From: Botryllus schlosseri
Lineage: Eukaryota
Reading direction: 5' to 3'
DNA length: 60,000 nt
Assembly: GCA_051294905.1 (NCBI GenBank)
Contig: CM119372.1
Coordinates: 33,730,001-33,790,000, forward strand
This document shows positions 1,960 through 55,105 of the stretch, piece after piece. Both the position numbers and the translations under genes were made by a program. Below the pieces are notes generated by a model, which had not been told where the DNA came from, did not search any database, and was given only the letters and a program-made list of their open reading frames with translations. Every line of letters starts with the position of its first letter. Position 1 is the first letter of the stretch.

Positions 1960-2260
1960 ACCTTTCCGGAGCACTCAATTAGGCTTTGCTCTGCTTCAAA
2001 GAAGAAATTACGGTATCTTTTATATCTGAGGAGATGTCACAAATACATCTACGAAAAGTATCATTTGACATGGAATCGTTTTCTATTCTTCCGCAGATTT
2101 GCTCCCAAACATTTTTTACAATTATGGTGCAAGCGGGAAGAATAACATTCTCCGCAGACAAAGCGCGCTTCCTGTTAGGTTTTGAATTTTTAGCTATTAT
2201 TAGCTCCGCGATCACATATCTGGCTTGCTGCGATCTCGTTGAAACTTCGGGTTGCGCTTA
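1960..2260 (-). pseudogene. Buster/Charlie (ZBED5/SCAND3-like) hAT transposase fragment
   Basis: Translation IAELIIAKNSKP...ENVILPACTIIV...MSNDTFRRCICDISSDIKDTVISSLKQS matches the IAK..KP...E.LILPA....LSN.TV.RRI.D.S motif of this family. Confidence 0.8.
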
Positions 2261-2423
2261 TATACTATTAATTAAGATTTGTTTGACAATAAACTCTGCC
2301 CACTACCGCATTGTCAATGTAATTAATCATCGCACCGAAGAGGCCAAGCACGATCGCCATCGTTTACTTTTCTTTTTATTTTCCTTTTTCAACCAGCATT
2401 TTTTACAGTCAGACTGTATAAAG

Positions 2424-13090: not shown

Positions 13091-13822
13091 TTAATATGGT
13101 AAACGTGGTTAAACCGTCATGGTATCGGCGACATCAAGACAAGTATCCTATCCGTCGCTCATTAATAACATTTTACGAGTAATCATTAAATGGAAGACTC
13201 CGCGAGTTCCTCTTCAGCGTTTCGGTTGATTTCAGTTTTCTTGAGTATCGTATCGCTTGCAACACTCCTGGGCAAAATCCGCGCAAACTTGCCTAAGAGC
13301 CGTTTCAATGTTTCCTTTACTGACCGCCAGAGATCTTGCGACGAAACCTTGTATACGATGGGGTTGATCGTTTCCGTGAAATGCAGAATCCAACGGCCTG
13401 TCAGGAACCCTACTGCGTGCTGACGATAACTGGCGAAGCTGACATAATACCATAAGGCGTAAGTAAACTGTGGGACATATCCGATGAAGAAGGAAGACAC
13501 GATGGCAGCAAGTTGAATCAAGGCTTGCTTCTCTTCTTTTCGGAAGGCTGAGTCCCCTGTGCGTTCTTGTCTTCTCAATTTCCGCCTCAGTAACGACAGT
13601 CCAATGGCAACACATAGTACGACAATGAAAGATATCGGAAAGAGTGTCAGCACTATAGTGTGCATTAAATGGTAAATATCGGAAAGCCATAGGTAGGATT
13701 TCTGCACAAAGCATATCTTCTTCTCACTTAACCTTGACGGGATAATATCTAGATAAATTAGGGGCAGAGGCATGATTAGAACAAGGAATGTCAGCCAAAC
13801 ACTAATTACTAGAGCCCTTGCT

Positions 13823-13864
13823 CGGGGCCTATACGATATAAGACCGTGAATATCGTAGGCCCCG
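13823..13864. mobile_element. 42-bp hairpin micro-insertion in the GPCR
   Basis: CGGGGCCTATACGATA...TATCGTAGGCCCCG inverted ends flanked by direct repeat CCTTGCT(C); removing it restores the frame. Confidence 0.8.
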
Positions 13865-14384
13865 CCTTGCTCTTTTTAGTGTTAACAAGCAGGGCATGGT
13901 ATGGTATGGTATGGAACGAGGATTCTCCATACTCCAAACTTGCCTTACTCACTCCCTACCATACTTGCAATTCTCCATACCATACCAACATTGTTCCATA
14001 CCATACTTGATACATATTCCGTACTTTTAAATACTTCAATATCATAAGTATAGCACCTTTTCTAGCACCTATGTTATTTATATTTCGGAAGTCATTATTG
14101 TTTAAACTATAGCCATGATGCGAATCTAATTCCTGGTATTAGTTTACAGAATCTGTTTTGGTGAGGTTTAGTACACGGTGGTGAGGTGCCGTGTACGTCT
14201 ACGCTACAGTTTCCGCGAGCAAAATGAGATTGTCAGCAGATTGTTATCTAGGACCGTTTACAAAAGGGACGGGCAGAGAGAGAGAGATGTGGTATTCTTT
14301 TTCGCCTGCACCATCGAGATGCTTTTGACGACGGAGATGCGATACGGCCATTATAGTAAGGTCATCTAGTCTGCACCCCCGGTT

Positions 14385-23149: not shown

Positions 23150-25240
23150 TCTAGTTGTCTAATTAGAGTGAAAAAAACGTGTAGCTAAAATTCTGATTAT
23201 ACTCTAATTTTGAAAATAAAAACTAGCTATAATTATAATTCTACTTCAATTCGTGAAGTGCTTCGTCTCTCTCATTCGAATCTAATTTGTGAGAACAACT
23301 GAACCTATAATTCTAGTTGTACTCTAATTTGGAAAAAACAGTGTTGCTATAGTTCTAATTCTACTCTATAATTTGAAAAAAACTGTTAATATAATTCTGA
23401 TCCCACTCTAATTCCGAAAAAAAACGAGCTACAAATCTAATTCTACTCTAATTTGGAAAAAGCTGTGTAGCTATAAATTCTGATGCTACTCTAATTTGTG
23501 AAATGTTTCTTTGCTCTCAATCGAATCTAATTTAGAAAAAAACTACCGTATAGCTATATTTCTAATTCTACTCTAATTTGAAATAAAAACTACCCCTAAT
23601 TGGATTCTAGTCTAATTCAGAAAATATACTGCAGTAATTATTCTGATTCTACTCCAATTTTTCAAATGTTTCTTTGCTCTGATTCGAATCTAATTTGTGA
23701 TAACAACTGTGTCGCTATAATTCTAATTCTACTCCAATTTGGAAAATATTTTTTTGATCTAATTAGAATCTAATTTGTGAAAACAACTGTGTTACCATCA
23801 TTCTAATTCTATTCCAATTTTTGAAAGGTTTTTTTTGCTCTAATTAGAATCTAATTTGTGATAACAACTGTGTCGCTATGATTCTAATTCTACTCCAATT
23901 TGGGAAATATTTTTGGGGTAATTAGAATCTAATTTGTGAAAACAACTGTGTTGGTACGATTGTAATTCTACTCCTATTTTTGAAATGTTTTTTGCTCTAA
24001 TTATAATCTATTTTGTGATAACAACTGTGTCGCTATAATTCAATTCTACTCCTATTTTTAAAATGTTTTTTGATCCAATTAAAATCTAATTTGTGGAAAC
24101 AACTGTGTTACCATAATTCTAATTCTACTCCTATTTTTGAAATGTTTTTTTTGCTCTAATTAGAATCTAATTTGTGATAAGAACTGTGTCGCTATGATTC
24201 TAACTCTACTCCAATTTATGAAATGTTTTTTGCACTGACTAGAATCTAATTTGTGATAACAACTGTGTCGCTATGACTTTAATTCTACTCCAATTTGGGA
24301 AATATTTTTTTGCACTAATTAGAATCTAATTTGTGAAAACAACTGTGTTGCTGTGATGGTAATTCTGCTCCAATTTATGAAATGTTTTTTTCAATAATTA
24401 GAATCTAATTTGTGAAAACAACTGTGTTACCATGATTCTAATTCTACTCCTATTTTTGAAATGTTTTTTTTTGCTCTAATTAGAATCTAATTTGTGATAA
24501 GAACTGTGTCGCTATGATTCTAACTCTACTCCAATTTATGAAATGTTTTTGCACTGACTAGAATCTAATTTGTGATAACAACTGTGTCGCTATGATTCTA
24601 ACTCTACTCCAATTTATGAAATGTTTTTGCACTGACTAGAATCTAATTTGTGATAACAACTGTGTCGCTATGACTTTAATTCTACTCCAATTTGGGAAAT
24701 ATTTTTTTGCACTAATTAGAATCTAATTTGTGAAAACAACTGTGTTGCTATGATTGTAATTCTACTCCAATTTTTGAAATGCTTCTCTGCTTTGATTCAA
24801 ATGTAGTTTGTGGCTGCAACTGGTCGCTATAATACTAATTCGATACCAATTTGTGAAATGTTTCTTTGCTCTAATTAGAAAGTAATTTGTTAAAACAGCC
24901 GTGTCGCTAGGATTGTAATTCTACCCCAATTTTTGAAATGTTTTTTTTCTTCAATTAGAATCTAATTTGTGATAACAACTGTGTCGCTATGATTCTAATT
25001 CTATCCCAATTTGTGAAATGTTTCTTTGCTCTGATTCAAATGTAATTTGTGGTTGCAACTGTGTCGCTATAATTCTATTTCCACACCAATTTGTGAAATG
25101 CTTTTTATCTCTGATTAGATTCTAATTTGCAAAAACAACTGTGTCGCTATAACTCTAATTCTACACCAATTAGTGAAACGTTTCTTTGCTCTAATTAGAA
25201 TCTAATTTATGATAACTTTGTAGCTGTAGTTCTTATTTCA
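23150..25240 (+). repeat. ~80-bp satellite (two related ~40-bp subunits), ~25 copies
   Basis: Repeating AATTAGAATCTAATTTGTGATAACAACTGTGTCGCTATGATTCTAATTCTACTCCAATTT..GAAATGTTTTTTGCTCT; period 78-81. Confidence 0.95.
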
Positions 25241-26439
25241 ATTTGGAAAAGCTTAAGTTTTTCAATTGTGCAATGTGCAAGCTAGAAATTCACACATTTT
25301 CGTCTGCAAATGAATGTTCTGTATTGATCTTTCGTTGCAATAAAATCTTTTTTGAGCCTGAGCTGAGTAAAAATTCATGGATGGCTGGTATTAATTTCGA
25401 GCTCTGCACCAGTCAACATGAACACACCACCACTAAACACAGGATAGCCAGGCACACATCGGCTCCAGCACGTTCTATGGTAGTTAAAAAAAAACCGGAT
25501 TTGGCGTGTAAGTTTGCGTTCCACTGCACGCATTCGAATTTAGAGTGTACATAATTCTGACTACATAATCTGCTGTTTCTTAAAAAATTCTATATTCGAT
25601 ATTTAGCTTTAGCCTTTTCCTGGTTGCTATGTCATTACAGGTTCGATTATCCAATGTTGCGTTAAGTTAATGAGTTCCTCTGACGGTCCATGGCAGCTTG
25701 TGCAAACGAGTTCCAGAACCATACTTATCGCGTTCCGAAAATATTGCTGTTCAGTCGGTATATATATCGTCACGTGAGATAATGGGGATGCATCGACAGT
25801 AAAAATAACTCGTATGGACCGCAATTTATTACAATAATATTTACATACGCGTACGTGATAATTGGAGTGAAACCACACATCAATTATTGAATATTTATGA
25901 GTGTTCGACTGATCACGATCGATTATGCCTCGAAGCACAACATAGAGAAAACCCATTGACGTATGATATATTTTTCCATTCGGTCATGGTGTATGTGGGC
26001 CTACTTTGATATTGCAACGGTTCATATAGATTCTCGTGGATTCGTACACTTTGGCAGTATAGGTCTATATCAGAGGCGGGTTACTTCTCCAATCTCTGGG
26101 CCTGATATGAGGGAATTACTTGGCGGGCCAGATTCCTGAATCGATACCTTAATCGCGGATTTATCTACCTAAAAACGGGGGATATATCGTATTTATTGTT
26201 AACTTTAATTTTAAAGCATATAGAGAAGAGACCTAAAACAGTATTCAATAAATTTATTATCGTAATGTACTTCGTTGTTGTTGAAGTCAATAAGGCATCT
26301 GTGGTCGATCAAAGTTGTCAACAAATTCTATGATGTGGGAACCCTAATTAAAAACTGAGTGTGAACATTGGTCAGATTGCAACGTAGCTTTGTATTGTTA
26401 CCCCTCAAATGTATGTAGACCCGAAAGAACAAGTAGAGT

Positions 26440-31845: not shown

Positions 31846-32421
31846 CTCTATTTTATCGAAGCCCCTGAAGGCCTCTTCGTGAATATACGCGATTCGGTTA
31901 GACCGGAGGTTCAAAACCCGCAAGTTAATCAATCCGCCCTCGGACATCGTCTTTTCGGCGGCACATTTCTTAAGCTTTTCAAGTTTCCCCATACTCCGTA
32001 ACCCAGACTTTCCGTCACTGCCTGATTTATGGGACGATCCGTTTTGAGATGCAGGCTCGCAGTTCGGGTCCAGGTGCGTTTTCAGCGAGAAATAATTTTT
32101 CTTGACGGCTCCCAGTCTGTTGTCGGACAAATCTAGAATCTGCAGAGCTACCATTGTTCCGAAACCATGATCCTGAACGTCTTCGATTTCGTTGTGGCTG
32201 AAGTTAGCATCGGTGGCGTATTCCAATCGCTTTGTCATGTTTCGAGTGATGCGCTTTAATTTAGTGCCGGTCACATCTACGGCGCGTAACGTTGCGGGAA
32301 GAGTCGGTGCGGATTGGAACGGGTTGCGGGACAATTTCAAATGTGCGACGCTGGAGAGATCGCAAAACGCGTCCGCGCTGATGTTGGCCACTTTCGAGTG
32401 GGTGATGTCGAGGTGTTTGAG
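31846..32421 (-). CDS. LRR protein exon
   Basis: LKHLDITHSKVANISADAF...LRVLNLRSNRIAYIHEEAFRGFDKIE; TTCGCAG acceptor and GTAAGC donor; 192 codons; joins the next exon as FDKIE|ILDLGEN. Confidence 0.92.
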
Positions 32422-34424: not shown

Positions 34425-35035
34425 AGGGCTGTTCAAAACAACTTTTCTAAAGATTTCACTGCCTATGTGATACAACTGTTGGGTTGGTTGAAACAACGCT
34501 GTACACCAAATTTTGCTCAATTCCAACCAGTCGAAGCGAGATTCTTGCAGCAGAAAGCTTTGAATTTATCATTGAAAAATGAAAATAAAAAATTTGCAAA
34601 TTTTTTTTTGTCAACCATATAAAATTGTTAGGCTGTCAGTAAAGATAATGCATAGCACATTTGGCTCAATTCCAACCACTAGGAGCGAAGTTATTGGAGT
34701 AGAAAAATTCAAATTCCACGATTTTATATTAAATAATTAAAGAGTTAGCCACCGTAAATACCATTAATTTCAAATCCCAACTTTTTCTACTGCAATAAGT
34801 CAATTGAGGCAAATCTGGTGTGCATCTTCTTTACTGACAGCCTAACAATTTTACGGGATTACCGAAAAATTTTTATTTTTTAATGATAAATTCGAAACTT
34901 TCTACTGCAAAAAATCACTTCTACTGTTTGGAATTGAGTCAAATTTGGTCTGCAGCGTTGTTTTCACGAACCTAACAATTTTATCACATAGCCAATGGAT
35001 GAAATCTGAAGAAAACAGTTTTTTTAAACAGCCCA
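34425..35035. mobile_element. Long-TIR fold-back MITE
   Basis: GGGCTGTT...AACAGCCC ends; internal inverted copies such as ACAACGCTG..CCAAATTT.GCTCAATTCCAA / TTGGAATTGAG.CAAATTTGG..CAGCGTTGT. Confidence 0.65.
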
Positions 35036-38000
35036 AATGTGCAGTTTGCAGGGTGCACCCATCATCCTATATCCGTATATCGCTAGAAAATACAAAGCTC
35101 ATCATGAATGGGTTACAACTACGTTTTTCGGAGTACTCAAGTAGGTTTTGTCCATGTTTGTACTCTTTACTTCGGATATTGTAATCGCGCTTAGCGTAAA
35201 GAGCGTGTATTTCCAACCGTGTACCACCCCTGATATACGAGTGTGGATATACAGTAGACCCATGGCACACGAAACCAGATGCTACCACAGACTTACACCG
35301 CAGTTCAAACCGAGTACAACATTTTAATCCAAATTACGCATGCAGCACATTGGAACGTGTGAAGGTATGAACGAGGGCTCGTAGGATTTATGACCCCGAT
35401 ATCATTCTGAGTTAAGTTCTGTTTTCGTGTACCATCCTTTTCGGCCCTTTGGGTGTAAATCAGGGGTCGCCAGCTCAAGACGGGTAGCGGGCCACTTTTC
35501 AAATTTCGTGGAGGACGCGGGCCGCATGAATTCAATATCGAGAATAATTTGGCCAAACAGTTGAACAACGACGCTATCTCGTCACCTACTCAACCTTAAT
35601 AAAATTGATATCTTGGTAAATTTGGGGTACCGGGCTTATCGAACGCCTTGAAATCTTAATTCGGGATTGCACCGTGTGTGCATTGATCAGCTGTGAGTAG
35701 ATACGAGTGTGAGTAGCTATTCTCAAATCCACATTGCCTTCGTAATTATCGGCGAGAAATGGCTTTGAAGTGACATTGCTGTCGTCAAAATACATCCATT
35801 AAATACGATTTATTCCTTGTATACGTGGATAAATGAGCGAAAATGTATCAATGCAGCAATCCGGCCCGCCAAGTAGTTAATTTTCCCATATCCGGCCCGC
35901 CGACTGGAGAAGTTTCCCGCCCCTGGGTTACGTCATTCTTTCCATTTAACTAAAGGCAATGTTCGGCAAAATTTATTTTATACTGGCTTGCCGAACGCGA
36001 AATTTGGTATCAATCGAAAGCTACCGCGGTACTGATTACGATAATACAAACTATTTATTCTGTTCGTGATCCTGGAATCCCCCAATACGCAATGAATATT
36101 GCATTGTAACCTAGTTTGGCATTATGACGCAACAATCCCGTCTGGAACAACGTGTCGCAGCTCAGCAGCAAGGGATGGTAAGCGCAAAATGCAAGCGTAT
36201 TGGCAATTGTTGCGCAAGTGATTTCACATTGACACTCTCACTGCTGCGCTATAGAATGTAAACGTTTACATTCTATAGCTGCGCACTTGATCCTTAGCTG
36301 CGGCATCCTGTTCCAGACGACATTGTTGCGTCATAATGCAAAGTATCACATGATGTCACGTTAACGTTCGTCTGACACTAGTTCTGTCTGCATAGCTTCC
36401 CAACGGTCGCTGTAAAGCGGCAAAGGTTGCCGTTGCTCCAGATATATTGAAATCGCTTACACGTAGGCTACCATACGAAACTAAAAGAATATTTCCTTTC
36501 GTGAGACGAACACGATTTCAAATTGGCATTTCCATACGGTTATCATTATTTTCCTCGGGGGTCTCATTTCATACGTGCGGCTCAAGCTGCTGGCGCTGGA
36601 CTATTCGGCGCTGGACATTTTGCCGACTAGACAGCGTCGGACGTTTCGGCCAACATGCGGCGGTTATTTTATTTCGAGGTTTTATCGTCGCCAATCATTT
36701 CGGCAGCGCACCTATCGCATGAAGTCGTATGTTGCCCGAAACAATATGTCTAGGTCGTGTATCCTAGTGAAAGATGCCCATTGCCGAGATGTCGGCTCAA
36801 GGAGTAGTCGCGTTTCCGCAGGCTGCACATGCACAGTGGACACTCCTAGACTAAAGCAGCTAAATGGTTTCATACGATCAGGGCCGTAACAGCACTTTGT
36901 CAGCCCCCCTAAAAAAACGTTGGTCTTGGGCCCCCCATAGGGTGGTAAACCGAACTTCTGGGGGCTTCGCCCCCCCCCAGACCCCACCTCCGACCATCCA
37001 CTGTTTATATACTGTACATTGGCTATGCCTTGTTTCTTCATTCAGTGTCCGTTTAGTGAATCTGCTTTGCTTGCCTAATCGCGCGAGGCGCCAGAAATTT
37101 GCATAAGTCATGACTGAATCGGTCAATATGACGCTGTTTATACATTGGGTGTCCGTTTAGGGAGTCAGCTTTGCTTGCTTAATCGCGCGAGGCGCGAGAA
37201 ATTTCTATAATTCATGACTGAATCGGTCAATATGATCGGTATTTGCATGTATATTGCTATCAATTTTTATCCTCTCTCTGCTCCCGTATTCTGATTTACC
37301 GGTAGAGCTGAGTAAGGTGTGCTTGAAAAGGTATATGACCCCTCAATAATAATTGAAAATCTCCGGGTGTCCTACCCGTTGGCAGGAACGAAACAGCACT
37401 TCGCCAGGCCCCCCAAAAACTTGAGTCTTGGGCTCCCATAGGGTGGTAAACCGACCCCCCCTCCAATCACGTTGGTCCGCTTTTGCCACGAAATTACAGT
37501 TGTATTGTTCAGTTAGCTAGCGCTAAGCGCGACATTTTTTGATAATTCATGATAAAATCGGCCAATAAGATCGGGAATTGCATATATATTGCTATCAATC
37601 TCTTGTCCTCTCTACTCACGTAATCGGATTTACCGGTAGAGCTGAGTGATGTGTCTTTGAAACTGTAGCCCGCAAATAATAATTAAACATCTTCTGACGG
37701 GCGGACTCGTTGGTATGACTTCGTTACATGATGTTATTTCGTGACCTCCTGTCTGCTATAACAAAAAACATTCAGCGCTAGTCACTTAGGCGCCTATGGA
37801 CAAATAAACCTATATGTATTTCGTATATACAAACGATATTTTCGGTCACCATAAGGGCAGTCCTTTTCGGGCAAGGTTTCTCGCTGCCGATCGTTCTGGC
37901 ACACTTCTTGGACTCGCGCGTTACGTGGCCTAAAACTGTATATGTCTTGGTGCGTCGTGGAGCGGTAATGGCCAGCGCCGATATGACCAGTTCTATAATT

Positions 38001-40014
38001 CTTGCGTCTTTTTCCTTGGGGGAAGAGTAGCCTACCCAATAATCATAACAGTAGTTATATAGATCGCTGGTGACCTGGCAGGGGTTCTTATGGGTGCGGC
38101 GGTGAGGTGCCTGAAAACTCGTGGTGGTGATGGCACCCTTTTACACCCCCTCTCGGCGGTGAGGTGCCATGTGCTCTTATGGATGCGGTGATGATGGCAC
38201 CCTTTCGGGTATAGGCTGCGGCGGTGATGTGCCTGAAAACTCGTGGTCGTGACTCGCCTTTTTTGCTATGGGCTGCGGCGGTGATGCGCCATGTATTCTT
38301 ACGCGATATGTGGTGACTCGCCATGTGTTCTTATGGGTGCGGTTGTGATGCGCACTTTCAACCATCTCTCGCGTGGTGTTGAATAGTCACCAACAATAAC
38401 CGCACAAACGGAAACGTGGCTTGCAAGAGGATTAAGCAGTGCGACCTATATTTCGAATGACCTGCGCGCTAAATTGTTTCACAGCCAACCGCGGTGGTCG
38501 TGACTCGCCTTTTTTACTATAGGTGGTGACGGTGATTCGCCTGTCGTGTATTCTTACCAGACATGGGGTAATCGCGATTAGTAATCGTAATCGATTACGA
38601 CGATTACAGTATTTTGAAGTAATCGTAATCGCAATCGATTACATTCGAAAAAAATCCGAAGTAATCGTAATCGTAATCGACTACTTCCCATATCTAATCG
38701 ATTTTTTTGTGAAAGAACAAGAATGAGATAATATACCACGTTAGCGATAGCATAAACGTCTGTTTTCAAACGCCACTGACTCATTATTACGTCAAAAGTA
38801 TTAGCTCCGCTCGTGATTGCGTAACAAGTATCCACACTTAGTAAACAGACATGCGATGGACATTGTAGTGTGATTGTAAGAACACCTCTCGTGGTGCATA
38901 TCAGGTTATCAATACACTACAGAAGCCGCTACCTCGCAGCAAGATATTGATCACCACTCTGCCTATAGATTCAAATAGTAACTTATGTATTAATGTTTGG
39001 TTGTGCTTAGTTAAACGCAGTTTACCATTGCTGCTTGGCGAGCAGCAGGCCTACGTACGCACGACGCACGTGCACCTGACGAAGATTCGGAATTTTGTAC
39101 TCGTCGAATAAGACATTGCAGTTTCCACAACGAAGCATTACAAATAAACAGCTGCTGATATATATCATAACCGAGCCGTGCTTAGCCGTTTCTCGTAACA
39201 GCAGCTCACTGTATATGTATTAAGTTGAAGGCAGAACTTTTATGTTAACTATATCTTATTCTCATATAACTACTTGAAACGGGCGTCAATCGTTATTTCA
39301 CAGTTCGTTACTTAGCATTTGGACCAGCCGCCATAACCATCCGCTTATATAGCCTGACATGTTAGCGTGGGTTGTAGCTAGAATCAGCAATTCAGCCAAA
39401 ACAGCAATTCCCCTGTCCAACCGTTCGTCAATTTTCAAAACTGAATTTCGTCAATAATATTGGTAATTGCATTATATTACTATTCATTTATAACCTCTCT
39501 GAGCCCCGAGTGTCAGATTTACCTGCAAAGCTGGGGCACGTAATTCATATTCATAGCATCTGGTATGTTGTTATAATTACTGTATGTTGTTAATTCGCGA
39601 CCTCCAGTCCGTTGTATAATCACAAGATATTGTACTCGCCCAAACGTAGCAGACTAAAAGAATATCTTTTGTGAGACGCACACACAAACTGTCATGGCTT
39701 TATTCCTTTGTGGATGCGCCGGGTGACATTTGCATTGTGGGCTCAGATTGGAAGGACAGGACTTATTAATCACGCCCACTCAGCGCGGCTATTGACAATG
39801 GACGAATTCCCTAAGTTTCGGCCAAGGTATTTCTTTGGTATCACATCCCGTGGAGTTGCGTGTTGGCCGAAACTGCATATGTCTTTTGGTGTGTTGTGGG
39901 ATCGTGACGCGGTAATGACCGGCTCCGAAATGCCTGTTCCCGTAAAATATAGCCTATGTATGTTTTTTCTTGAGGGGAAGAGGTATGCATTTCAAACCCA
40001 GCTATCTACTGGAT

Positions 40015-40952
40015 CAGGGGTCACCAACTGTTTCGAAACAAAAAGCTACTTCTTGTGTAGTGTGTACTGATTATTGCGACGACCGACGGGTTACCACGTA
40101 CTGCCGTCGTTTATCCATGTTCAGTTGGATTTCTTCACTTAGAGTAAGACAATCGGAGCACTGGGCCGGGTTTCCGCCCCTTACCAAGAAAAAAGAACGC
40201 TCACTCGCAGGGACTCACACCAGCTCCTCCAAGCTCAGTTGCGTTGCTGCAGTGCGTGCAGAAGCGCCAATCTCCGCGTCTAGACTCGGGAATATTAACT
40301 ATAGATTCCCGTCGAGCCGCCGCGTGGGCGAAGGCAAGCAATGCCCCGAGCGACTGCGTTCGTATGTTCCTTGGCGTCGGCCGACCCATGTTCAACTGCT
40401 GCTCATACGAAACGAGCTTCAACTTTCAAATCTCTCATTTGGATATTTGCTACAGCGCAGTTGTGGCCATACGAACGGGTAGGGGGGGGGGGCTGGGCGA
40501 GACTTACCGGGGGCCCCCTATAAGTATCTATCCGTAACTTATGGGGGGCTTCGCTCCCAGACCCCTCTTTCGCATCTGTTATTATTATCTATCTATCAAG
40601 GTTTGGCCAGGTGCTGGATTCGGCCAGGTCTATTTTTGCATGTGTGCAAGGATAGACTACATCAAAACTAAGTTAATCTACCGCATGCAGAGACGTGATG
40701 ATTATCGGGATACGGGACTTTTCTAACAAATGCAGAGATTTGATGATGATTGACACATCTGTACGGAATCCTATTCTTGATTTACACGGATTTCCATGTT
40801 TATTCGTTATTATCCTTGAAAAAAGCGCATAATCTAAATAGGGGAGCCCTTCGACCAGCCCCCCCTGGCGACCGCCCACCTCGCCCACCCCAAAAGCCAC
40901 CACTACTACAGCGACCGCGGGCGACTCATTTGGTCCGCGTTGATGACCCCTG
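40015..40952. mobile_element. hAT-type MITE carrying rRNA-derived cargo
   Basis: CAGGGGTCACCAAC...GTTGATGACCCCTG, degenerate TSD TACTGGAT/TACTAGAG. Confidence 0.7.
40100..40453 (-). pseudogene. Degenerate 28S rRNA fragments
   Basis: Colinear resemblance to conserved antisense 28S motifs: ATTTCTTCACTT..GAGCACTGGGC; AAGAAAA.AGAAC; GACCCATGTTCAACTGCTG; TTTG.ATATTTGCTAC. Confidence 0.8.
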
Positions 40953-43900
40953 TACTAGAGCCATTTGAATCGCGAAGCTCGAAAAACATTTTCAAGAATT
41001 AATTAAATTCTCGAAAATACTCTATAACATATGTTGGTTTACGAAATACTTTTGAGTCCCCTTCGAGCACGCTCCCCACTCTATTAAAGAATTTGGGGTG
41101 CGGCAGGTAAAGACCTGGCAATAATGCAAATCGTTGGATGCGATAAATCATCCACTATAAAGTTGGGCAATTGATATATTATGACGTAATAAGCAAATGA
41201 CGCATGATGTATGAAGAAAGTTGATATCTCATTAAGCCTTTTCGTCGCAATCCTTGTATTGTCTTCCCATATATCATTTAAGATTATAGTCCTAAGCAAA
41301 ACAAATGTAATCGTGAGTAATCGTGATTACTTTTTCAATGTAATCGTAATCGTAATCGACTACTGCCTGATTTTGCTGTAATCGTAATCGTAATCGTAAT
41401 CGCGTGATTCCGAAGTAATCGTAATCGCAATCGATTACATTCATAAAGTAATCACCCCATGTCTGATTCTTACGGGGTCTGTGGCGACTCGCCATGTGTT
41501 CTTATGGGTGCGGTCGCATGCGGCTATTGCGTCTTATGGCGGGGGGTGGTGAGCGGCTATTGATGCTAACACGAAACCCGGGGTGGCGAGCGGCACTTAT
41601 TTCTTATGGCGGCGGGTCTTATTTCTTATGGGTGCGGTCGTGATTCGTACTTTCGGTATAGACTGCGGGCGGCATGTCGTACTTTCAGCAAAAAAAGGTG
41701 TGAAATAGTTTGCCAAGTCTAGGAATCACTTGCAAGGTAATATTTTGGTATTTAGTTTACCACAGAGCCGGCGTAGACGGCGATTCGAATATCAACAATA
41801 ACAACGCTCACGAATTAACACTTCAAATAGCTGTGAAATAGTTTGCAAAACCCCGCGATCGCTGACAAGATAATGTCTCGGTCATAACCATCTTTCACGA
41901 CTTGGTGTCCTAACCATACCGATCGCTCACGCGGTGAAATTTTAGTAATCAGTTTGTCACAGTACTTGATATCGCTGGTAAGATTTAACAAGTAACGAAT
42001 AACAGACCGCGGTAACTTGAATAGCGACAAATTGTCACTTATTTCCGCTCTAACTCTAATCCTTTGTGAAGTGAACGCTTATTCAAAAGGGTGTGATATA
42101 ATTTTAAAATCCAACGACCACTCACCGGATAATACTTCAGACATAGCAATTCCGCATACCCGCCTACAAGGTAATATTTCGGTAATTAGTTTGTCACAGA
42201 ACCGTCGCAGGCGGTGATTGGAAAACCGACAATTTGTCACTCGCCCGCGATCGCTATATGTTTCACGCCTCCAGAATAGTGGCTGACTTTAGTTGCGTGA
42301 TAAGATCCATGAAAATATTCAATCAATGTGTTAGTTTATCAACTTGAAATGAAACTCACTACACAAATCAAGTCGATTCGTATCTGAATGTTTTAAATCG
42401 GTACAACTCTAATCCTTTGACAAATCCCTTACCGCGTTTTTGTTGAATCGAACGTAACCCGAATATTACTGACGCCGACTTTCAGCCGCATCGAATTATT
42501 CGCACATTCCGCGCCACTGTTTTCACACTTATAGAATCAATACCAACTATAACTCTACAAGAATCAAGAATCACAAGTATGTGCATTACACAGTTATTGT
42601 CTTTATTAACTTGAAATCAAACACTTAACAAAAACACACAACTAATCATTTGGCAACTCTAGCATTACCAAAAAATTCCAGTATTGTTGATTGAAAATCC
42701 TTGAGTCATTATTATCAAAAATGTTATAGTACCGCATCGGAATCCATTTCGCGGGATGTACTAAAGGTAAATCCAGATAATCCAAAATGAAATATTTGGA
42801 CTTTGACATAGTCTGAATTGAAATATATTGACAAACATGACTACCAACTTTGATCCAGTCACATTTCAAGATCATACTTTGAAACAATCCTTGAAACTTA
42901 CAACTTTATTCACGACTAAGTTTTCCGTTTATCAAATAGAGTTTCAGTAAATACTATCGCGATATTTTAATGTGTTACTACACACAATAGAATCAATCAA
43001 TGTTGTTGTAAATATTTCTAACTTGACAACCACTTGTGCATACCGCGATCGACTTGCGACGCGATGAGTTAAATCGGAATATTTCAATCTATTTGTCGAA
43101 ACCTTGAACAAACTATCAGGTTATTTTTTGTTGTAATCGAGTGAACGGAAATAGTATTACGTCTCAACATTTTAGCATCTTCCCATAAACAAAGAGTAAA
43201 ATACAAAAAACCTTGTCAAGTCAATCCGTTTGTAACTTACCCAACCAAAGCAAAAACTATCCTTATGAAAAGTAGACAAGACTACGCCAGTAATTACTAC
43301 AATCCAAAATCCATAACAAGCTCGGTTGTATTCATATCCCTACGACGCGTCTTTTGTTTTTCAACTGTAAAAGTCGTTACTATTTTGCAAGACAAAGTAA
43401 TTACTACTTGATATATTTTATAAACCAAAGTAAATACTACTCGGTGTGTGGTTTGAGATTAACATATTACATTTGAGTATACCGGATTTGAATGCCTGAC
43501 CAACGTAGTTGAGAATTCATTTCTTACAATCAAACGCCGGTTTTACATTGAAAGGTATCATACTGTAAACATAAGGATTGACACATTGATTTGATATATG
43601 AGATTTTGTAATGCTCGACCACGACTTGATTATTAAATTATTCACGATAATTAGACCCGATGTTGTGGTAAAGGTTATTAGAAAATATCACTTTTGGCAT
43701 CGAGTACCAGTCGAAGTGGGTGAACAATAACACCGAAAATGATAAATGCGTTTCGTGCTACTATTGATACAAGTTCATTTCTATCAGGTGAAATAAACGC
43801 CATCACAAAACTCAGAGCATGCAAAGGTCTTGATTGATATGAATTTCGATTTGTGTCTTATGATTTTAGAAATATTATGATTCGTTAAACCAAAGTCGTA

Positions 43901-45639
43901 TGTCCGATTATTAATTGATTGGAAACTTGATCACGTACCTCGATCATTACAGAAGATTATAACCCCATTGTCCGACAATCTTTTACAAAAGGATCGAAAC
44001 CAAGTAACCCAAAGTCGTTGCCGTCGCATAAACAATTTGTACGACGTTTGATAATTGTACCCTATACGTTGGTGTACTAGAGATATTTGTAAAACACACT
44101 CTGGTAAAGAAATCGAAAAGATATCCTACACCTAAATCTGATAAAACCATTTTGCACTTTTTGTTCGTCAGTAGTATCCATTTTAATTTTCCCATTTCCT
44201 CTCGTCAAAGTAGATGTAATCATAGTCACTAAAGAACTTACTTGGATGTGTTTGAATTCTAGACATAGTTATGATTTACTCAACGCAAGACCCAAGAACA
44301 ACCGTAGTTAACAACCGTGCACACATATCCAAAATATCGCACACTCCGCTATTCCTAAAGTACAAACACCCGATACAAAATATCACTTGTTGCGGCATCA
44401 TCTTCACAATATCACCATTCTGTTTGTGTCAATTAGTTACTTTGTATGTTATCCCACAACTCTTACAAAAGTACGAAGGATATTAACATCGCACTAAGTA
44501 ATTACCTTTACTCGATATTCTCACATTACGAAACTAAAGAATGGTTGGTTAGACTCTACAAACTGTTTCGATATCACAAGACCTTTATTGTCTGAATGGG
44601 TGTTCATGTATCTTAATAATCAAATAGTTCAACACAGAACTAGTACTAACAGAAACATCAGAGTTGTTTACACAAAAGTTTGTATGTGTACAGTATGCGA
44701 ATACCATGTGTAAGTCCAGCGCAATTGCAGTATCCATTCGAGTTCAGTCAACACAAATTTATTACAACGGAGCCACGTAAACTTTCGTGAAAGAAAAGCA
44801 TACTCACTTCCAGAGGGTTATGTCAACACCATAGCAGTTCCCCAACAACAAAGTACATATGTTTCTAGCCACGGTCCTTACATCTTTCACATAGATCAAT
44901 CTACTTTGCTAACGAAAAGTGCTGAGTCATCACATGATCGCTCTCACAACAAAACAGCTAGTAGATATTATCATTCAAAATATTCCTAACCCTTTACACA
45001 CCAGTGACAAATCATACAACGAATATGCTTTGCGGGTCGAATTGTTGTTCAGTGTCAAGTCTACCTGTTGAAACGTACATTAAACAGCGCAATCCAATTA
45101 AAACCACGAATCTATTTTCATTTCGTCACATACAGAAAAATAAATTTTCTTTCTCCAACACATACTTGTAACCAATCGCTTTCATTAAACACACAACACC
45201 ATAAAAGTATTTACTTTCTACAACATAGACATTCCGATGTAGTCAAGAAATATTTTTATTAATCAAAATCATCGATTTCTGTTCACGGCGTTAGTGTGTG
45301 CATGTCATACCTGTGGGCCTCGTATTAAAATGGACACGACACGACTGAATGTAAGGGGGCAGAAGTCTATCACATCGATTTACATGTAGTCTTCGCCACG
45401 GTTTCAAAAAACGAATCATCTCTTTTGCATTGATCTAGACCGAGCAAGTTAGTTAATGGCCATGATTGTGTTTGTCATATGCGAATGATAGGGTTACTGT
45501 CAAATCTACATACAACAATCTTCTGACGATCATAATAGCAATTTCATTTTCCACCCCTTCATAATTGTACAACTCGGTAACTACGTTTAACAAGACCAAT
45601 CACACTACCGGCGTTGAACACAAGATACCTACCCAAGTA

Positions 45640-46480
45640 AAAATATCATTCTGGTTTGGACAACTGACGTTTACCTGTGTAAAATTATCATTTTCACTTG
45701 GAGGTCCACCGTTACCTAACTAAAATACCATTGTCCTTTGGAGATTTATCGTTTACCCAGTGTAACAATCCCCTTTTCACTTGGAAATCTATTTTTGGCC
45801 TGAATAACAAACCCCTTTTCACTTGGAAATCTATTTTTGCCCTGGATAACAAACCTTTTTCATTTGGAAATATATTTTTTCTCTTGGTAACAAACCTTTT
45901 TCACTTGGAAATATATTTTTTCTCTTGGTAATAAACCTTTTTCACTTGGAAATATATTTTTTCTCTGAGTAACAAACCTTTTTCACTTGGAAATATATTT
46001 TTTCTCTTGGTAATAAACCTTTTTCACTTGGAAATATATTTTTTCTCTGAGTAACAAACCTTTTTCACTTGGGAATATATTTTTTCTCTGGTTAACAAAC
46101 CTTTTTCACTTGGAAATCTATTTTTTCTCTGGGTAACAAACCTTTTTCACTTGGAAATATATTTTTTCTCTGGTTAACAAACCTTTTTCGCTTGGAAATA
46201 TATTTTTTCCTTGAGCAACAGACCATTTTTACTTGGAAATATATTTTTTCCTTGAGCAACAGACCATTTTCACTTGGAAATATATTTTTTCCCTGAGCAA
46301 CAAACCATTTCACTCGGCGGGTCGTCGTTTACCTGAGTAAAATATCATTTTTCTTTGGAGATCTGGCGTTTACCCATTGTAACAATACATTTTCACTTGG
46401 AAATCTGTCGTTTACCTGAGTACCAATACCGTTTTCACTTGGAAATCTGTCTTTTCCCTGGGTAACAATACCCTTTTCGT
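45640..46480 (+). repeat. 41-bp minisatellite in the left arm
   Basis: TCACTTGGAAATATATTTTTTCTCTTGGTAATAAACCTTTT units at 45901, 45942, 45983 and onward; degenerate toward the edges. Confidence 0.92.
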
Positions 46481-47855
46481 TTTGAAAACTGACAACCACA
46501 CCGGTCAATTTGATATTTTTTGTATATTGTTACAACAGACAGCGACAAAATATACACCAACAACGACTCCGATACATTTGTCTAATCAAATATTCACTTG
46601 CTCTGATGCATCCCATCAAAATCATTGGTTACTCACATACAATAACAATGTGCTGTTGTACATCGACATGTATGTTTTCGGAATTGGTGAATAAAGGCGT
46701 TTCCGATATGTCCGGGTTTGTGCTTTGGATTTTCCAGAGTCAAAATGTCTGAATAAAACACCTCCTCGACTTTGGTAACTGGTTGATACACGGATAATGG
46801 TGTTCGGAAAACGGATGAATTTATGTTCCCCATCGCGCTGACAACATCGGGTTACTTGTGAGTTTCCTCGGGTCTGTTTACTATATTGTGTCTTTACTGG
46901 TCAATACATGTCGCTCCAGTCAGCTGAAACCGGATCACCAATATGAGAAAGTGTGGGGGGCCGGATCCGGATATTCACTCATGACCCAACGACCGATATT
47001 CAAGTAAACATGTTACAGACCGTGTTTTGTCTCCATGAAAAATACCAATGCATACACCATCACATCAAGTACGTCACGATTGTTCACAAGTATTCGCGTA
47101 AACCAGGTGTACATACAATGTGTCGGTGTACAAACATCACGGAAAACAAATTCATGTTGTCAAGTCTCATCATGCGACGACTCTGTACATTCAATGTGGG
47201 CATAGATGACTTGGGGACAGGCAAGCAACCATATTTGGACGTAACATGGTCTTAGTATGAACCAACCTCCACCCAACTTGTGAAAAATCAATCTCACACG
47301 AGTACAACCCTTTCACGGGTTCACACCTTGATTTTGCAAGATTGTTCGGATTCTCAGGTAGACTTGCATCGTGATCAAGACCTCAATATAATCGTGTTGC
47401 GTAACTCACTCAATCCCTGCGCATTGTTGGTCATAACCTGCTAACTTTTTCGCCGAGACCGCAGTGTTTCACCCGACATAATGTATTTGGCGATCACCAT
47501 CGTTATCAATCTTTCACGCGATGAATATGTCAGATGTCGCTACTCCCACATAACGACTACAGATAAACATCGTGAGCAGTGACTCCGCATTGAAATCGTA
47601 AACATGGACTCTGTGTGTGTGTGTGTGAATCTCGAGTTCGATTACGATTTGATAATGTAATCCAAGGTGAATCTCTGCGAGTCGAAGACTGATTTCGTGG
47701 TAATCACGCCACAAGAGGGCGCTGTCTCGTAATTCTACAGGTCAACATAAACCGCGGTTGGAAACTTTTGGTCTAGTTGATCCAGCTACGTATTGAAACG
47801 GTGTACCCACACAGACCACTGAGAAAACGTTGTCGTTACCTGACTATATCCACGA

Positions 47856-48137
47856 GTGAATATGGGACTACGCGTAACGTTCCATAGATTCCTCTGGCCC
47901 CACACCGTGGTTTTACGACACAGACAAGATGCAGCGGTGGAAATATTGAAAATGAAAAACGATACCTTGGTGACATTTGATTTGGATTTTACACCTGATG
48001 AACCATACACTCGATTGGTACATTGGGATGACAACTCTATCATCGAGGTCAAGGGAAAAGAAATGTACAGATTTGTTGGTGTTGTGGATATTCAGCGAAA
48101 ATCAGGGTATATGGTTGTGTATGGTTCGCATATTTGA
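47856..48137 (+). CDS. Hypothetical ~91-93 aa ORF in the unique central spacer
   Basis: Uninterrupted ORF with globular-looking composition; no recognisable family. Confidence 0.3.
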   Translation: MNMGLRVTFHRFLWPHTVVLRHRQDAAVEILKMKNDTLVTFDLDFTPDEPYTRLVHWDDNSIIEVKGKEMYRFVGVVDIQRKSGYMVVYGSHI

Positions 48138-48918
48138 CTGAGAATATATCGGTATGCATAATGCACTATCCATTGTATCATATCGTGTGTCATCTATGCC
48201 CACATTGAATGTACAGAGTCGTCGCATGATGAGACTTGAGAACATGAATTTGTTTTCCGTGATGTTTGTACACCGACACATTGTATGTACACCTGGTTTA
48301 CGCGAATACTTGTGAACAATCGTGACGTACTTGATGTGATGGTGTATGCATTGGTATTTTTCATGGAGACAAAACACGGTCTGTAACATGTTTACTTGAA
48401 TATCGGTCGTTGGGTCATGAGTGAATATCCGGATCCGGCCCCCCACACTTTCTCATATTGGTGATCCGGTTTCAGCTGACTGGAGCGACATGTATTGACC
48501 AGTAAAGACACAATATAGTAAACAGACCCGAGGAAACTCACAAGTAACCCGATGTTGTCAGCGCGATGGGGAACATAAATTCATCCGTTTTCCGAACACC
48601 ATTATCCGTGTATCAACCAGTTACCAAAGTCGAGGAGGTGTTTTATTCAGACATTTTGACTCTGGAAAATCCAAAGCACAAACCCGGACATATCGGAAAC
48701 GCCTTTATTCACCAATTCCGAAAACATACATGTCGATGTACAACAGCACATTGTTATTGTATGTGAGTAACCAATGATTTTGATGGGATGCATCAGAGCA
48801 AGTGAATATTTGATTAGACAAATGTATCGGAGTCGTTGTTGGTGTATATTTTGTCGCTGTCTGTTGTAACAATATACAAAAAATATCAAATTGACCGGTG
48901 TGGTTGTCAGTTTTCAAA

Positions 48919-49759
48919 ACGAAAAGGGTATTGTTACCCAGGGAAAAGACAGATTTCCAAGTGAAAACGGTATTGGTACTCAGGTAAACGACAGATTTCC
49001 AAGTGAAAATGTATTGTTACAATGGGTAAACGCCAGATCTCCAAAGAAAAATGATATTTTACTCAGGTAAACGACGACCCGCCGAGTGAAATGGTTTGTT
49101 GCTCAGGGAAAAAATATATTTCCAAGTGAAAATGGTCTGTTGCTCAAGGAAAAAATATATTTCCAAGTAAAAATGGTCTGTTGCTCAAGGAAAAAATATA
49201 TTTCCAAGCGAAAAAGGTTTGTTAACCAGAGAAAAAATATATTTCCAAGTGAAAAAGGTTTGTTACCCAGAGAAAAAATAGATTTCCAAGTGAAAAAGGT
49301 TTGTTAACCAGAGAAAAAATATATTCCCAAGTGAAAAAGGTTTGTTACTCAGAGAAAAAATATATTTCCAAGTGAAAAAGGTTTATTACCAAGAGAAAAA
49401 ATATATTTCCAAGTGAAAAAGGTTTGTTACTCAGAGAAAAAATATATTTCCAAGTGAAAAAGGTTTATTACCAAGAGAAAAAATATATTTCCAAGTGAAA
49501 AAGGTTTGTTACCAAGAGAAAAAATATATTTCCAAATGAAAAAGGTTTGTTATCCAGGGCAAAAATAGATTTCCAAGTGAAAAGGGGTTTGTTATTCAGG
49601 CCAAAAATAGATTTCCAAGTGAAAAGGGGATTGTTACACTGGGTAAACGATAAATCTCCAAAGGACAATGGTATTTTAGTTAGGTAACGGTGGACCTCCA
49701 AGTGAAAATGATAATTTTACACAGGTAAACGTCAGTTGTCCAAACCAGAATGATATTTT
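48919..49759 (-). repeat. 41-bp minisatellite, mirror copy in the right arm
   Basis: Reverse complement of 45640-46480. Confidence 0.92.
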
Positions 49760-52700
49760 TACTTGGGTAGGTATCTTGTGTTCAACGCCGGTAGTGTGAT
49801 TGGTCTTGTTAAACGTAGTTACCGAGTTGTACAATTATGAAGGGGTGGAAAATGAAATTGCTATTATGATCGTCAGAAGATTGTTGTATGTAGATTTGAC
49901 AGTAACCCTATCATTCGCATATGACAAACACAATCATGGCCATTAACTAACTTGCTCGGTCTAGATCAATGCAAAAGAGATGATTCGTTTTTTGAAACCG
50001 TGGCGAAGACTACATGTAAATCGATGTGATAGACTTCTGCCCCCTTACATTCAGTCGTGTCGTGTCCATTTTAATACGAGGCCCACAGGTATGACATGCA
50101 CACACTAACGCCGTGAACAGAAATCGATGATTTTGATTAATAAAAATATTTCTTGACTACATCGGAATGTCTATGTTGTAGAAAGTAAATACTTTTATGG
50201 TGTTGTGTGTTTAATGAAAGCGATTGGTTACAAGTATGTGTTGGAGAAAGAAAATTTATTTTTCTGTATGTGACGAAATGAAAATAGATTCGTGGTTTTA
50301 ATTGGATTGCGCTGTTTAATGTACGTTTCAACAGGTAGACTTGACACTGAACAACAATTCGACCCGCAAAGCATATTCGTTGTATGATTTGTCACTGGTG
50401 TGTAAAGGGTTAGGAATATTTTGAATGATAATATCTACTAGCTGTTTTGTTGTGAGAGCGATCATGTGATGACTCAGCACTTTTCGTTAGCAAAGTAGAT
50501 TGATCTATGTGAAAGATGTAAGGACCGTGGCTAGAAACATATGTACTTTGTTGTTGGGGAACTGCTATGGTGTTGACATAACCCTCTGGAAGTGAGTATG
50601 CTTTTCTTTCACGAAAGTTTACGTGGCTCCGTTGTAATAAATTTGTGTTGACTGAACTCGAATGGATACTGCAATTGCGCTGGACTTACACATGGTGTTC
50701 GCATACTGTACACATACAAACTTTTGTGTAAACAACTCTGATGTTTCTGTTAGTACTAGTTCTGTGTTGAACTATTTGATTATTAAGATACATGAACACC
50801 CATTCAGACAATAAAGGTCTTGTGATATCGAAACAGTTTGTAGAGTCTAACCAACCATTCTTTAGTTTCGTAATGTGAGAATATCGAGTAAAGGTAATTA
50901 CTTAGTGCGATGTTAATATCCTTCGTACTTTTGTAAGAGTTGTGGGATAACATACAAAGTAACTAATTGACACAAACAGAATGGTGATATTGTGAAGATG
51001 ATGCCGCAACAAGTGATATTTTGTATCGGGTGTTTGTACTTTAGGAATAGCGGAGTGTGCGATATTTTGGATATGTGTGCACGGTTGTTAACTACGGTTG
51101 TTCTTGGGTCTTGCGTTGAGTAAATCATAACTATGTCTAGAATTCAAACACATCCAAGTAAGTTCTTTAGTGACTATGATTACATCTACTTTGACGAGAG
51201 GAAATGGGAAAATTAAAATGGATACTACTGACGAACAAAAAGTGCAAAATGGTTTTATCAGATTTAGGTGTAGGATATCTTTTCGATTTCTTTACCAGAG
51301 TGTGTTTTACAAATATCTCTAGTACACCAACGTATAGGGTACAATTATCAAACGTCGTACAAATTGTTTATGCGACGGCAACGACTTTGGGTTACTTGGT
51401 TTCGATCCTTTTGTAAAAGATTGTCGGACAATGGGGTTATAATCTTCTGTAATGATCGAGGTACGTGATCAAGTTTCCAATCAATTAATAATCGGACATA
51501 CGACTTTGGTTTAACGAATCATAATATTTCTAAAATCATAAGACACAAATCGAAATTCATATCAATCAAGACCTTTGCATGCTCTGAGTTTTGTGATGGC
51601 GTTTATTTCACCTGATAGAAATGAACTTGTATCAATAGTAGCACGAAACGCATTTATCATTTTCGGTGTTATTGTTCACCCACTTCGACTGGTACTCGAT
51701 GCCAAAAGTGATATTTTCTAATAACCTTTACCACAACATCGGGTCTAATTATCGTGAATAATTTAATAATCAAGTCGTGGTCGAGCATTACAAAATCTCA
51801 TATATCAAATCAATGTGTCAATCCTTATGTTTACAGTATGATACCTTTCAATGTAAAACCGGCGTTTGATTGTAAGAAATGAATTCTCAACTACGTTGGT
51901 CAGGCATTCAAATCCGGTATACTCAAATGTAATATGTTAATCTCAAACCACACACCGAGTAGTATTTACTTTGGTTTATAAAATATATCAAGTAGTAATT
52001 ACTTTGTCTTGCAAAATAGTAACGACTTTTACAGTTGAAAAACAAAAGACGCGTCGTAGGGATATGAATACAACCGAGCTTGTTATGGATTTTGGATTGT
52101 AGTAATTACTGGCGTAGTCTTGTCTACTTTTCATAAGGATAGTTTTTGCTTTGGTTGGGTAAGTTACAAACGGATTGACTTGACAAGGTTTTTTGTATTT
52201 TACTCTTTGTTTATGGGAAGATGCTAAAATGTTGAGACGTAATACTATTTCCGTTCACTCGATTACAACAAAAAATAACCTGATAGTTTGTTCAAGGTTT
52301 CGACAAATAGATTGAAATATTCCGATTTAACTCATCGCGTCGCAAGTCGATCGCGGTATGCACAAGTGGTTGTCAAGTTAGAAATATTTACAACAACATT
52401 GATTGATTCTATTGTGTGTAGTAACACATTAAAATATCGCGATAGTATTTACTGAAACTCTATTTGATAAACGGAAAACTTAGTCGTGAATAAAGTTGTA
52501 AGTTTCAAGGATTGTTTCAAAGTATGATCTTGAAATGTGACTGGATCAAAGTTGGTAGTCATGTTTGTCAATATATTTCAATTCAGACTATGTCAAAGTC
52601 CAAATATTTCATTTTGGATTATCTGGATTTACCTTTAGTACATCCCGCGAAATGGATTCCGATGCGGTACTATAACATTTTTGATAATAATGACTCAAGG

Positions 52701-54954
52701 ATTTTCAATCAACAATACTGGAATTTTTTGGTAATGCTAGAGTTGCCAAATGATTAGTTGTGTGTTTTTGTTAAGTGTTTGATTTCAAGTTAATAAAGAC
52801 AATAACTGTGTAATGCACATACTTGTGATTCTTGATTCTTGTAGAGTTATAGTTGGTATTGATTCTATAAGTGTGAAAACAGTGGCGCGGAATGTGCGAA
52901 TAATTCGATGCGGCTGAAAGTCGGCGTCAGTAATATTCGGGTTACGTTCGATTCAACAAAAACGCGGTAAGGGATTTGTCAAAGGATTAGAGTTGTACCG
53001 ATTTAAAACATTCAGATACGAATCGACTTGATTTGTGTAGTGAGTTTCATTTCAAGTTGATAAACTAACACATTGATTGAATATTTTCATGGATCTTATC
53101 ACGCAACTAAAGTCAGCCACTATTCTGGAGGCGTGAAACATATAGCGATCGCGGGCGAGTGACAAATTGTCGGTTTTCCAATCACCGCCTGCGACGGTTC
53201 TGTGACAAACTAATTACCGAAATATTACCTTGTAGGCGGGTATGCGGAATTGCTATGTCTGAAGTATTATCCGGTGAGTGGTCGTTGGATTTTAAAATTA
53301 TATCACACCCTTTTGAATAAGCGTTCACTTCACAAAGGATTAGAGTTAGAGCGGAAATAAGTGACAATTTGTCGCTATTCAAGTTACCGCGGTCTGTTAT
53401 TCGTTACTTGTTAAATCTTACCAGCGATATCAAGTACTGTGACAAACTGATTACTAAAATTTCACCGCGTGAGCGATCGGTATGGTTAGGACACCAAGTC
53501 GTGAAAGATGGTTATGACCGAGACATTATCTTGTCAGCGATCGCGGGGTTTTGCAAACTATTTCACAGCTATTTGAAGTGTTAATTCGTGAGCGTTGTTA
53601 TTGTTGATATTCGAATCGCCGTCTACGCCGGCTCTGTGGTAAACTAAATACCAAAATATTACCTTGCAAGTGATTCCTAGACTTGGCAAACTATTTCACA
53701 CCTTTTTTTGCTGAAAGTACGACATGCCGCCCGCAGTCTATACCGAAAGTACGAATCACGACCGCACCCATAAGAAATAAGACCCGCCGCCATAAGAAAT
53801 AAGTGCCGCTCGCCACCCCGGGTTTCGTGTTAGCATCAATAGCCGCTCACCACCCCCCGCCATAAGACGCAATAGCCGCATGCGACCGCACCCATAAGAA
53901 CACATGGCGAGTCGCCACAGACCCCGTAAGAATACACGACAGGCGAATCACCGTCACCACCTATAGTAAAAAAGGCGAGTCACGACCACCGCGGTTGGCT
54001 GTGAAACAATTTAGCGCGCAGGTCATTCGAAATATAGGTCGCACTGCTTAATCCTCTTGCAAGCCACGTTTCCGTTTGTGCGGTTATTGTTGGTGACTAT
54101 TCAACACCACGCGAGAGATGGTTGAAAGTGCGCATCACAACCGCACCCATAAGAACACATGGCGAGTCACCACATATCGCGTAAGAATACATGGCGCATC
54201 ACCGCCGCAGCCCATAGCAAAAAAGGCGAGTCACGACCACGAGTTTTCAGGCACATCACCGCCGCAGCCTATACCCGAAAGGGTGCCATCATCACCGCAT
54301 CCATAAGAGCACATGGCACCTCACCGCCGAGAGGGGGTGTAAAAGGGTGCCATCACCACCACGAGTTTTCAGGCACCTCACCGCCGCACCCATAAGAACC
54401 CCTGCCAGGTCACCAGCGATCTATATAACTACTCATAACATTTTGTAAGTTGAAATCGCGCCCAGCGCGAAATTTTTTGGAAAAGTTGCATACAGTTTCA
54501 AAAAAACTCTATAATCTATGCTAATTCACGAAAAAATTTGGGGCCCCCTTCGAGCTCGCCCCCCCCCCAATTGTGGGGTTTGGGGTGCGGCAGTTACGGC
54601 CCTGCATACGATATTAGGCTAGCGTTCTTGCATTATTGCTAATAGGATTGGACTCATTTTTGTACAGCAGGCATATGTTTTTTAAAATGTTTTATGTGAT
54701 TTGTTCTTGCTTTGATGCATATTTTACGCTGTGCACACTGTGTATACAGTATACATTCTGCTTGGATGATTACTGCTGATTATCCATGTCTTTTATCTTT
54801 TGTAATTCCTATGTCCATTGGTTAACTGTCACATTCGTTAGTCTTGATATAGGCCTACCTACATCTTGCCATATTTACTCGTTTATAACTACCAGACTTG
54901 GACAACTAGATAATTCTAGTTGACTAAATTCACTAAATTAGAGCGAAATGCCAG

Positions 54955-55105
54955 TAATCTAATTCTAATTTAATTTGTGAAATGTTTCTATGATCCAATT
55001 CTAATTCTAATCTAATTTGTGAAATGTTTCTATGATCCAATTCTAATTCTAATCTAATTTGTAAAATGTTCCTAGGCTCTAATTTTAATTCTAATCTAAT
55101 TTATT
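54955..55105 (+). repeat. Short ~42-bp tandem repeat
   Basis: AATTCTAATTCTAATCTAATTTGTGAAATGTTTCTATGATCC, about 3 copies. Confidence 0.75.

Follow-up and report, generated by a model that had tools for sequence, protein, structure and literature searches.

In PMC8097293 (Barreat and Katzourakis 2021), Mavericks of vertebrates carry (AGT)2//(ACT)2 or (AG)3//(CT)3 ends and a 6-bp target-site duplication (TSD), with terminal inverted repeats (TIRs) of 46–1,447 bp and intact elements of 12,723–24,620 bp. The core gene set of Polintons, as given in PMC6431247, comprises a protein-primed PolB, a retroviral-like integrase, an ATPase, a protease and capsid proteins, and the Polinton model in PMC4196379 has protein-primed synthesis proceeding via a racket-like single-stranded intermediate. 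We analysed a palindromic element in a 60,000-nt stretch of the Botryllus schlosseri genome (GCA_051294905.1, contig CM119372.1, positions 33,730,001–33,790,000 of the forward strand; this whole stretch is called the window, and positions are counted from its first letter). The element shares with the vertebrate Mavericks the end motif, the 6-bp TSD and, at 13,468 bp, a length inside the reported range. It differs from them in its 6,245-bp arm, more than four times the longest TIR reported there (1,447 bp), and in its content, with none of eight core genes detected and one small orphan open reading frame (ORF) in a 1-kb loop. Since core genes were not detected and the arms are over-long, the element fails membership of the autonomous Polintons. 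We favour, with moderate confidence, the reading that it is a non-autonomous, helper-dependent palindrome of the Polinton/Maverick type, whose arms are reset during replication and drift after insertion. Non-autonomous Polintons were reportedly mentioned by Kapitonov and Jurka in 2006; a search by title and abstract, covering mostly non-subscription literature and without Repbase, found no description of giant palindromic ones.

The element spans 38050–54433 (16,384 bp), which reduces to 13,468 bp once an insert in the left arm and the duplication made by that insert are subtracted. It begins with AGTAGT at the left, ends with ACTACT at the right and has CATAAC on either side. The inverted repeat makes up 93% of the 13,468 bp, and the overall shape is that of a hairpin, with full arms of 6,245 bp and a loop of 978 bp. 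The right arm is a single unbroken stretch; the left arm has the identical layout, split by the 2,908-bp insert. The parts of the element are:

38044–38049, plus strand: left copy of the 6-bp TSD, CATAAC, matching the right copy in sequence
38050–38557, plus strand: outer left arm, with terminus AGTAGTTATATAGATC and subterminal repeats of core CTTATGG; 0 of 508 positions differ from 53926–54433
38558–41465, no strand assigned: non-autonomous hAT-like insert, 2,908 bp, left arm only, recognised by its 12-bp terminal repeats CAGACATGGGGT and its TSD
41466–47210, plus strand: inner left arm; 2 of 5,745 positions differ from 48189–53933
45630–46490, plus strand: array of about 20 units of 41 bp, mirrored at 48909–49769
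47211–48188, no strand assigned: unique loop (spacer), 978 bp
47862–48137, plus strand: conserved ORF of 91 amino acids (aa), with three equal-length relatives
48189–54433, minus strand: right arm, 6,245 bp, unbroken, ending in ...ATAACTACT, from self-comparison
54434–54439, plus strand: right copy of the 6-bp TSD, CATAAC, matching the left copy in sequence

In self-BLAST, the inner arm emerges as an inverted repeat of 5,745 bp whose copies differ by just two substitutions, at 44702/50697 and 47159/48240, and by no indel. The near-identity of the arms claimed in a preliminary description of this DNA is thereby confirmed, as are the two mismatches it named: KFMLSS against KFMFSS at 47159/48240, where the substituted base alters a residue of a second frame too, and a further one near 44702/50697, beyond which no others exist in the 5,745 bp. 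The bounds proposed there, 41466 and 53933, were too short, because a perfect 508-bp pair at 38050–38557 and 53926–54433, which overlaps the right copy of the 5,745-bp repeat by 8 bp, extends the element to 38050–54433. Over the whole arm, 2 of 6,245 sites differ (0.03%), with a 95% interval of 0.004–0.12% that is based on these two differences. One of the two, 47159/48240, lies 52 bp from the loop, a placement with a chance of about 1.7%, calculated post hoc. The 861-bp array is letter-identical between the arms, and its units differ mutually by 20% on average; CTTATGG cores number seven per arm, three of them within the outer part. Between 42000 and 53000 the GC skew on one side mirrors that on the other, at about −0.2 on the left and +0.2 on the right, and its sign flips within the unique loop as well (−0.14, 0.01, +0.16), a symmetry that may stem from strand-asymmetric replication or transcription.

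Public sequencing runs place this copy within a family. The stretch is present in 20 of 24 listed runs, 14 of which hold at least half of the sampled words, from 11 studies; the best holder, run X1, may derive from the source sample, and no RNA run is listed as holding the stretch. Four runs were mapped to 37700–45600, an interval that takes in the left flank, the insert and some 4.6 kb out of the 6.2-kb arm. An alternative letter reaches at least 10% of depth at 477, 534 and 500 of 7,901 positions in three DNA runs, counts that pool the arm with the insert and the flank. Among the arm contigs listed, up to 32 of 231 letters differ, and one contig from run X5 is exact over 304 bp. The many variant contigs in the three DNA runs describe a multicopy family with Polinton ends and without core genes. 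Among 24 of 5,278 rows, no loose end at 38049/38050 indicates an empty site. In the raw RNA run, 80% of reads continue into unlike sequence, and the run was not used for expression. Arm segment 43772–44299 has reduced depth in all three DNA runs and is replaced in one, and is therefore probably a variable cassette of the family.

Variant letters were judged on 40 of 880 rows (13 from the arm, 25 from the insert and 2 from the flank). All 13 polymorphic arm sites listed carry the same letter in both arms, and at five of them (41910, 42906, 43257, 44420 and 44721) the letter present in both arms is rare, with a depth share of 0.4–3% in run X1, 0–0.05% in X6 and none in X5. The residual X1 depth of these rare letters (273–7,330, compared with 8–21 for listed X1 contigs) hints that sibling copies carry them, so that they may predate insertion; this summed depth is no copy number. 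Because lineage-specific letters sit in both arms, the last synchronisation of the arms would have followed the rise of the rare variants, and a recent synchronisation is supported at the level of sequence. The earlier suggestion of decay followed by one founding duplication agrees badly with these figures: family members vary at several per cent of sites, the two arms at 0.03%.

The insert in the left arm would date from after integration. It is flanked by an 8-bp TSD, ATTCTTAC, at 38550–38557 and 41466–41473, and is itself multicopy in the public runs, where reads and contigs depart from the window at 38558 and 41465. We call it hAT-like on account of its 8-bp TSD and CAG ends; its ORFs have no Pfam match, and no transposase was found among them. 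It is present in one arm alone, having been neither copied to the right arm nor removed. At least 13 of the 25 variant rows listed for the insert have its own letter as the rare one (at most 7% in X1), and since 11 of these 13 letters retain residual depth in X6, most of them look donor-inherited. Within the insert lies one further feature:

40050–40453, minus strand: degenerate piece of large-subunit ribosomal RNA (rRNA), Rfam RF02543, 25.9 bits

This score lies below the RF02543 gathering score of 50 (E 2.8e-4 in a 501-bp search), and the rRNA piece was not recovered in a 10.9-kb Rfam search.

For a helper-dependent Polinton/Maverick-type palindrome we propose the following course of events. 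The protein-primed polymerase and the integrase would be lent by an autonomous Polinton resident in this genome, and during extrachromosomal strand-displacement replication the long arms would fold back. End-to-end panhandle copying preserves arm differences, so that an extra step would be needed, either (i) a snap-back, in which the new strand reverses direction immediately beyond the loop and serves as its own template, the second arm thus being re-made from the first, or (ii) as an alternative equalising step, mismatch repair within the 6-kb stem. If snap-back synthesis operates, leftover mismatches are expected beside the loop, and one of the two is 52 bp away. New insertions would begin with equal arms bearing the accumulated changes of the donor; after integration, the arms would diverge, here by two substitutions, and gain one-sided insertions, here the hAT-like insert. 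Synchronisation at replication rather than in the chromosome is likely, though unproven. The Polinton frame and the re-synchronisation of arms had both been put forward in the preliminary description; the ends, the 6-bp TSD and the rare letters in both arms agree with them, while the accompanying premise of decayed genes does not stand, as the arms look non-coding.

The strongest competing explanation, which we nevertheless consider unlikely, is that the likeness of the arms is due mainly to gene conversion between them, acting within the chromosome once the element had inserted, a process described for the palindromes of mammalian Y chromosomes; the copy would then possibly be far older than 0.03% suggests. 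Rare letters that arose in place and were then converted would also land in both arms, short conversion tracts could pass over the 2.9-kb heterology, and the partnerless insert has at least 13 of 25 listed sites with rare letters, against 5 of 13 in the arm. However, 11 of the 13 rare insert letters look donor-inherited from their residual X6 depth, the TSDs are both perfect while two arm differences persist, and the residual X1 depth hints that sibling copies share the rare arm letters. The uncopied hAT-like insert and the two intact TSDs favour, short of proof, a dating of the insertion free of conversion. The claim that near-identity dates a very recent integration therefore holds only if no conversion followed insertion, and a clock built on two differences is unreliable.

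Foldback transposons such as FB, Galileo and Tetris have very long inverted arms, internal tandem repeats and a short middle, and are non-autonomous. A cut-and-paste foldback transposon (FB/Mutator-like or similar), with arms equalised by gap repair and with Polinton-like ends by coincidence, appears improbable to us. Tandem repeats of modular build within very long arms, and the lack of a core gene, are foldback traits, and no Polinton helper was seen in the collections searched; the (AGT)2//(ACT)2 ends and the 6-bp TSD, on the other hand, fit Mavericks and not the 9-bp TSD of FB/Mutator elements, and another end found in the window, although diverged, retains an AGT-repeat terminus. This second Polinton-type right end occupies window positions 1–503, finishing in ...CTATACTACTACT at 503, with 58-bp subterminal repeats; positions 403–503 share 72% identity with the arm's first 101 bp and keep the AGT-repeat terminus, and the rest lies beyond the window. 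Least probable of all, and in our view very doubtful, is a real element whose arm identity was inflated by read mis-assignment or assembly polishing: short contigs cannot phase the arms, and none of the listed pieces reaches across the stretch. However, the assembly kept two substitutions apart and placed an insert, bearing a TSD of its own, in one arm only, the flanks are distinct and TSD-bearing, and polishing with reads of a high-copy family should rather import common letters, whereas both arms hold rare ones.

We examined the arms for coding content, which the preliminary description had taken to be decayed; this was not upheld, with ORFs at chance level and no significant match in Pfam or PHROGs. 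No arm ORF exceeds the 103 aa, from stop to stop, of the longest one, and ORF counts lie above second-order Markov simulations in 1 of 18 comparisons, the single excess being stop-to-stop ORFs of at least 50 aa in the outer arm (37, compared with 26.5 simulated). None of 110 ORFs of at least 45 aa reaches the Pfam cut-off, the best single arm ORF in PHROGs has an E of only 0.013, and the six frames read with stops as X yield no Pfam family and a best PHROGs E of 0.079. Frames read in this way would normally still reveal remnants of pPolB or integrase, and eroded core genes are therefore unsupported. A search of a large protein set covered two arm candidates: the ORF at 46636–46833 (minus strand) has no relative there, and the protein-like frame at 43566–44135 (plus strand) has 23 candidates, none at E ≤0.001. 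Three-base periodicity, a measure with little power here, gives no clear signal, the top arm window scoring 3.0 against 1.9–5.6 for known exons. The ORF at 42642–42875 (minus strand), which has an AATAAA downstream and some RNA depth, is not counted as a gene on account of 1-bp indel variants of the family inside it, at 42670 and 42747. Two ORFs with different ends cross from arm into loop, at 47010–47255 (plus strand, 81 aa) and 48102–48389 (minus strand, 95 aa), and neither has a PHROGs or Pfam match. The arms of this copy also show no sign of an SSB gene. The arms thus appear to be mostly non-coding cis sequence or stuffer rather than eroded core genes, though they could still harbour accessory genes outside the known families, whether decayed or small.

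The loop ORF is the sole ORF of the element with demonstrated conservation. Its three relatives are equal in length, align without gaps at 99, 73 and 76% identity, and show many conservative changes. A profile search of 1.84 billion representatives returned one of the three relatives and a weak likeness to WD40; a WD40 protein (E 7e-4) was rejected as a homologue, the match being weak and its score summed over repeats. The loop protein has no family match in PHROGs or Pfam and none in the PDB or the Atlas, and its AlphaFold model has a pLDDT of 37. Of the six proteins of the 73–76% relatives, five lie on contigs of 965–1,192 bp, about the size of the loop, and the sixth on one of 2,005 bp. Loop-sized contigs make it plausible that the diverged relatives share the hairpin build, and that five of six loop proteins lie on them favours a recurring process. 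From one copy, a recent one-off duplication in its lineage and a resetting at every round cannot be told apart.

As a tentative extension, for which we claim clearly less than for the helper-dependent palindrome itself, such elements may be integrated copy-back satellites of Polintoviruses, in which one arm and the loop are replicated and doubled into a near-perfect hairpin at each round, with the single loop gene kept. The doubling would lift a 7-kb unit of information to the size of a helper genome, perhaps for packaging, and the conserved loop gene possibly acts on the helper.

Several points weigh against a Polinton-dependent palindrome with arms reset at replication. Plain panhandle replication alone would leave the arms unequalised, so that the snap-back or repair step had to be added. 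An in-place origin of the rare insert letters would make the copy older than the arms imply. The terminus patterns are unmatched in viral, metagenome and prokaryote collections, and no helper was seen among them. Small arm genes could be missed, given that the loop ORF itself is unremarkable by length and periodicity. Identity within and between copies was compared through short contigs and 40 of 880 variant rows. Three metagenome loci considered as relatives (L001–L003) were rejected, being short matches selected by pattern and unlike the window in their DNA, and the viral contigs hold no related locus.

Models of Polinton replication have so far been built from sequence, and the process is difficult to observe. 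Arms of 6 kb that are equal within copies and differ between copies would be a record of the replication intermediate, and such a family makes the racket/copy-back model testable from genomes alone. If resetting occurs at transposition, arm differences would serve as a clock of insertion age similar to that of long terminal repeats; if the copy-back satellite interpretation is true, mismatches would cluster next to the loop. For this copy, the gains are corrected bounds and rare variants common to both arms, and the one-sided insert limits conversion after insertion.

The element lies within a host gene, where it occupies 63% of a putative intron:

32422–58646, minus strand: 26.2-kb phase-0 GT-AG intron of a leucine-rich-repeat (LRR) gene, holding the element, predicted from splice motifs and from an LRR reading that continues over the joint

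Pfam recognises LRRs in two exons of this gene, the upstream one and a later one, and the gene is possibly Toll-like. Further LRR exons lie at 31846–32421 and from 30622 down. Elsewhere in the window, a satellite-like array at 23150–25254 has 80-bp units (about 2 × 40), with a related short array of 42-bp units at 54958–55102. Exons of a rhodopsin-family seven-transmembrane receptor lie on the minus strand at 13186–13875, by Pfam 7tm_1, and at 15855–16262, by eye. Together with the LRR exons, they point to an animal host. Two short imperfect palindromes, at 34426–35034 and 36116–36342, are probably repeats resembling miniature inverted-repeat transposable elements.

The element agrees with the Polinton racket model in a terminal trinucleotide repeat suited to protein priming and in that its single strand would form a panhandle; it departs from the model in a stem that is 93% of the molecule and in the equalising of arms, which the accessible part of PMC4196379 does not describe. 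With FB, Galileo and Tetris it shares long inverted arms of modular build, which carry tandem repeats and enclose a short middle, whereas the Polinton-type ends, the TSD length (6 bp, failing the 9 bp of FB/Mutator-like elements) and the lack of any transposase remnant found set it apart. In copy-back defective viral genomes and in adenovirus panhandle repair, one end is regenerated from the other. The element resembles these systems in the regeneration of one end from the other, in its restriction to cis signals and in its dependence on a helper, as we read it, and differs from them in being integrated, heritable and high-copy, with arms of 6 kb.

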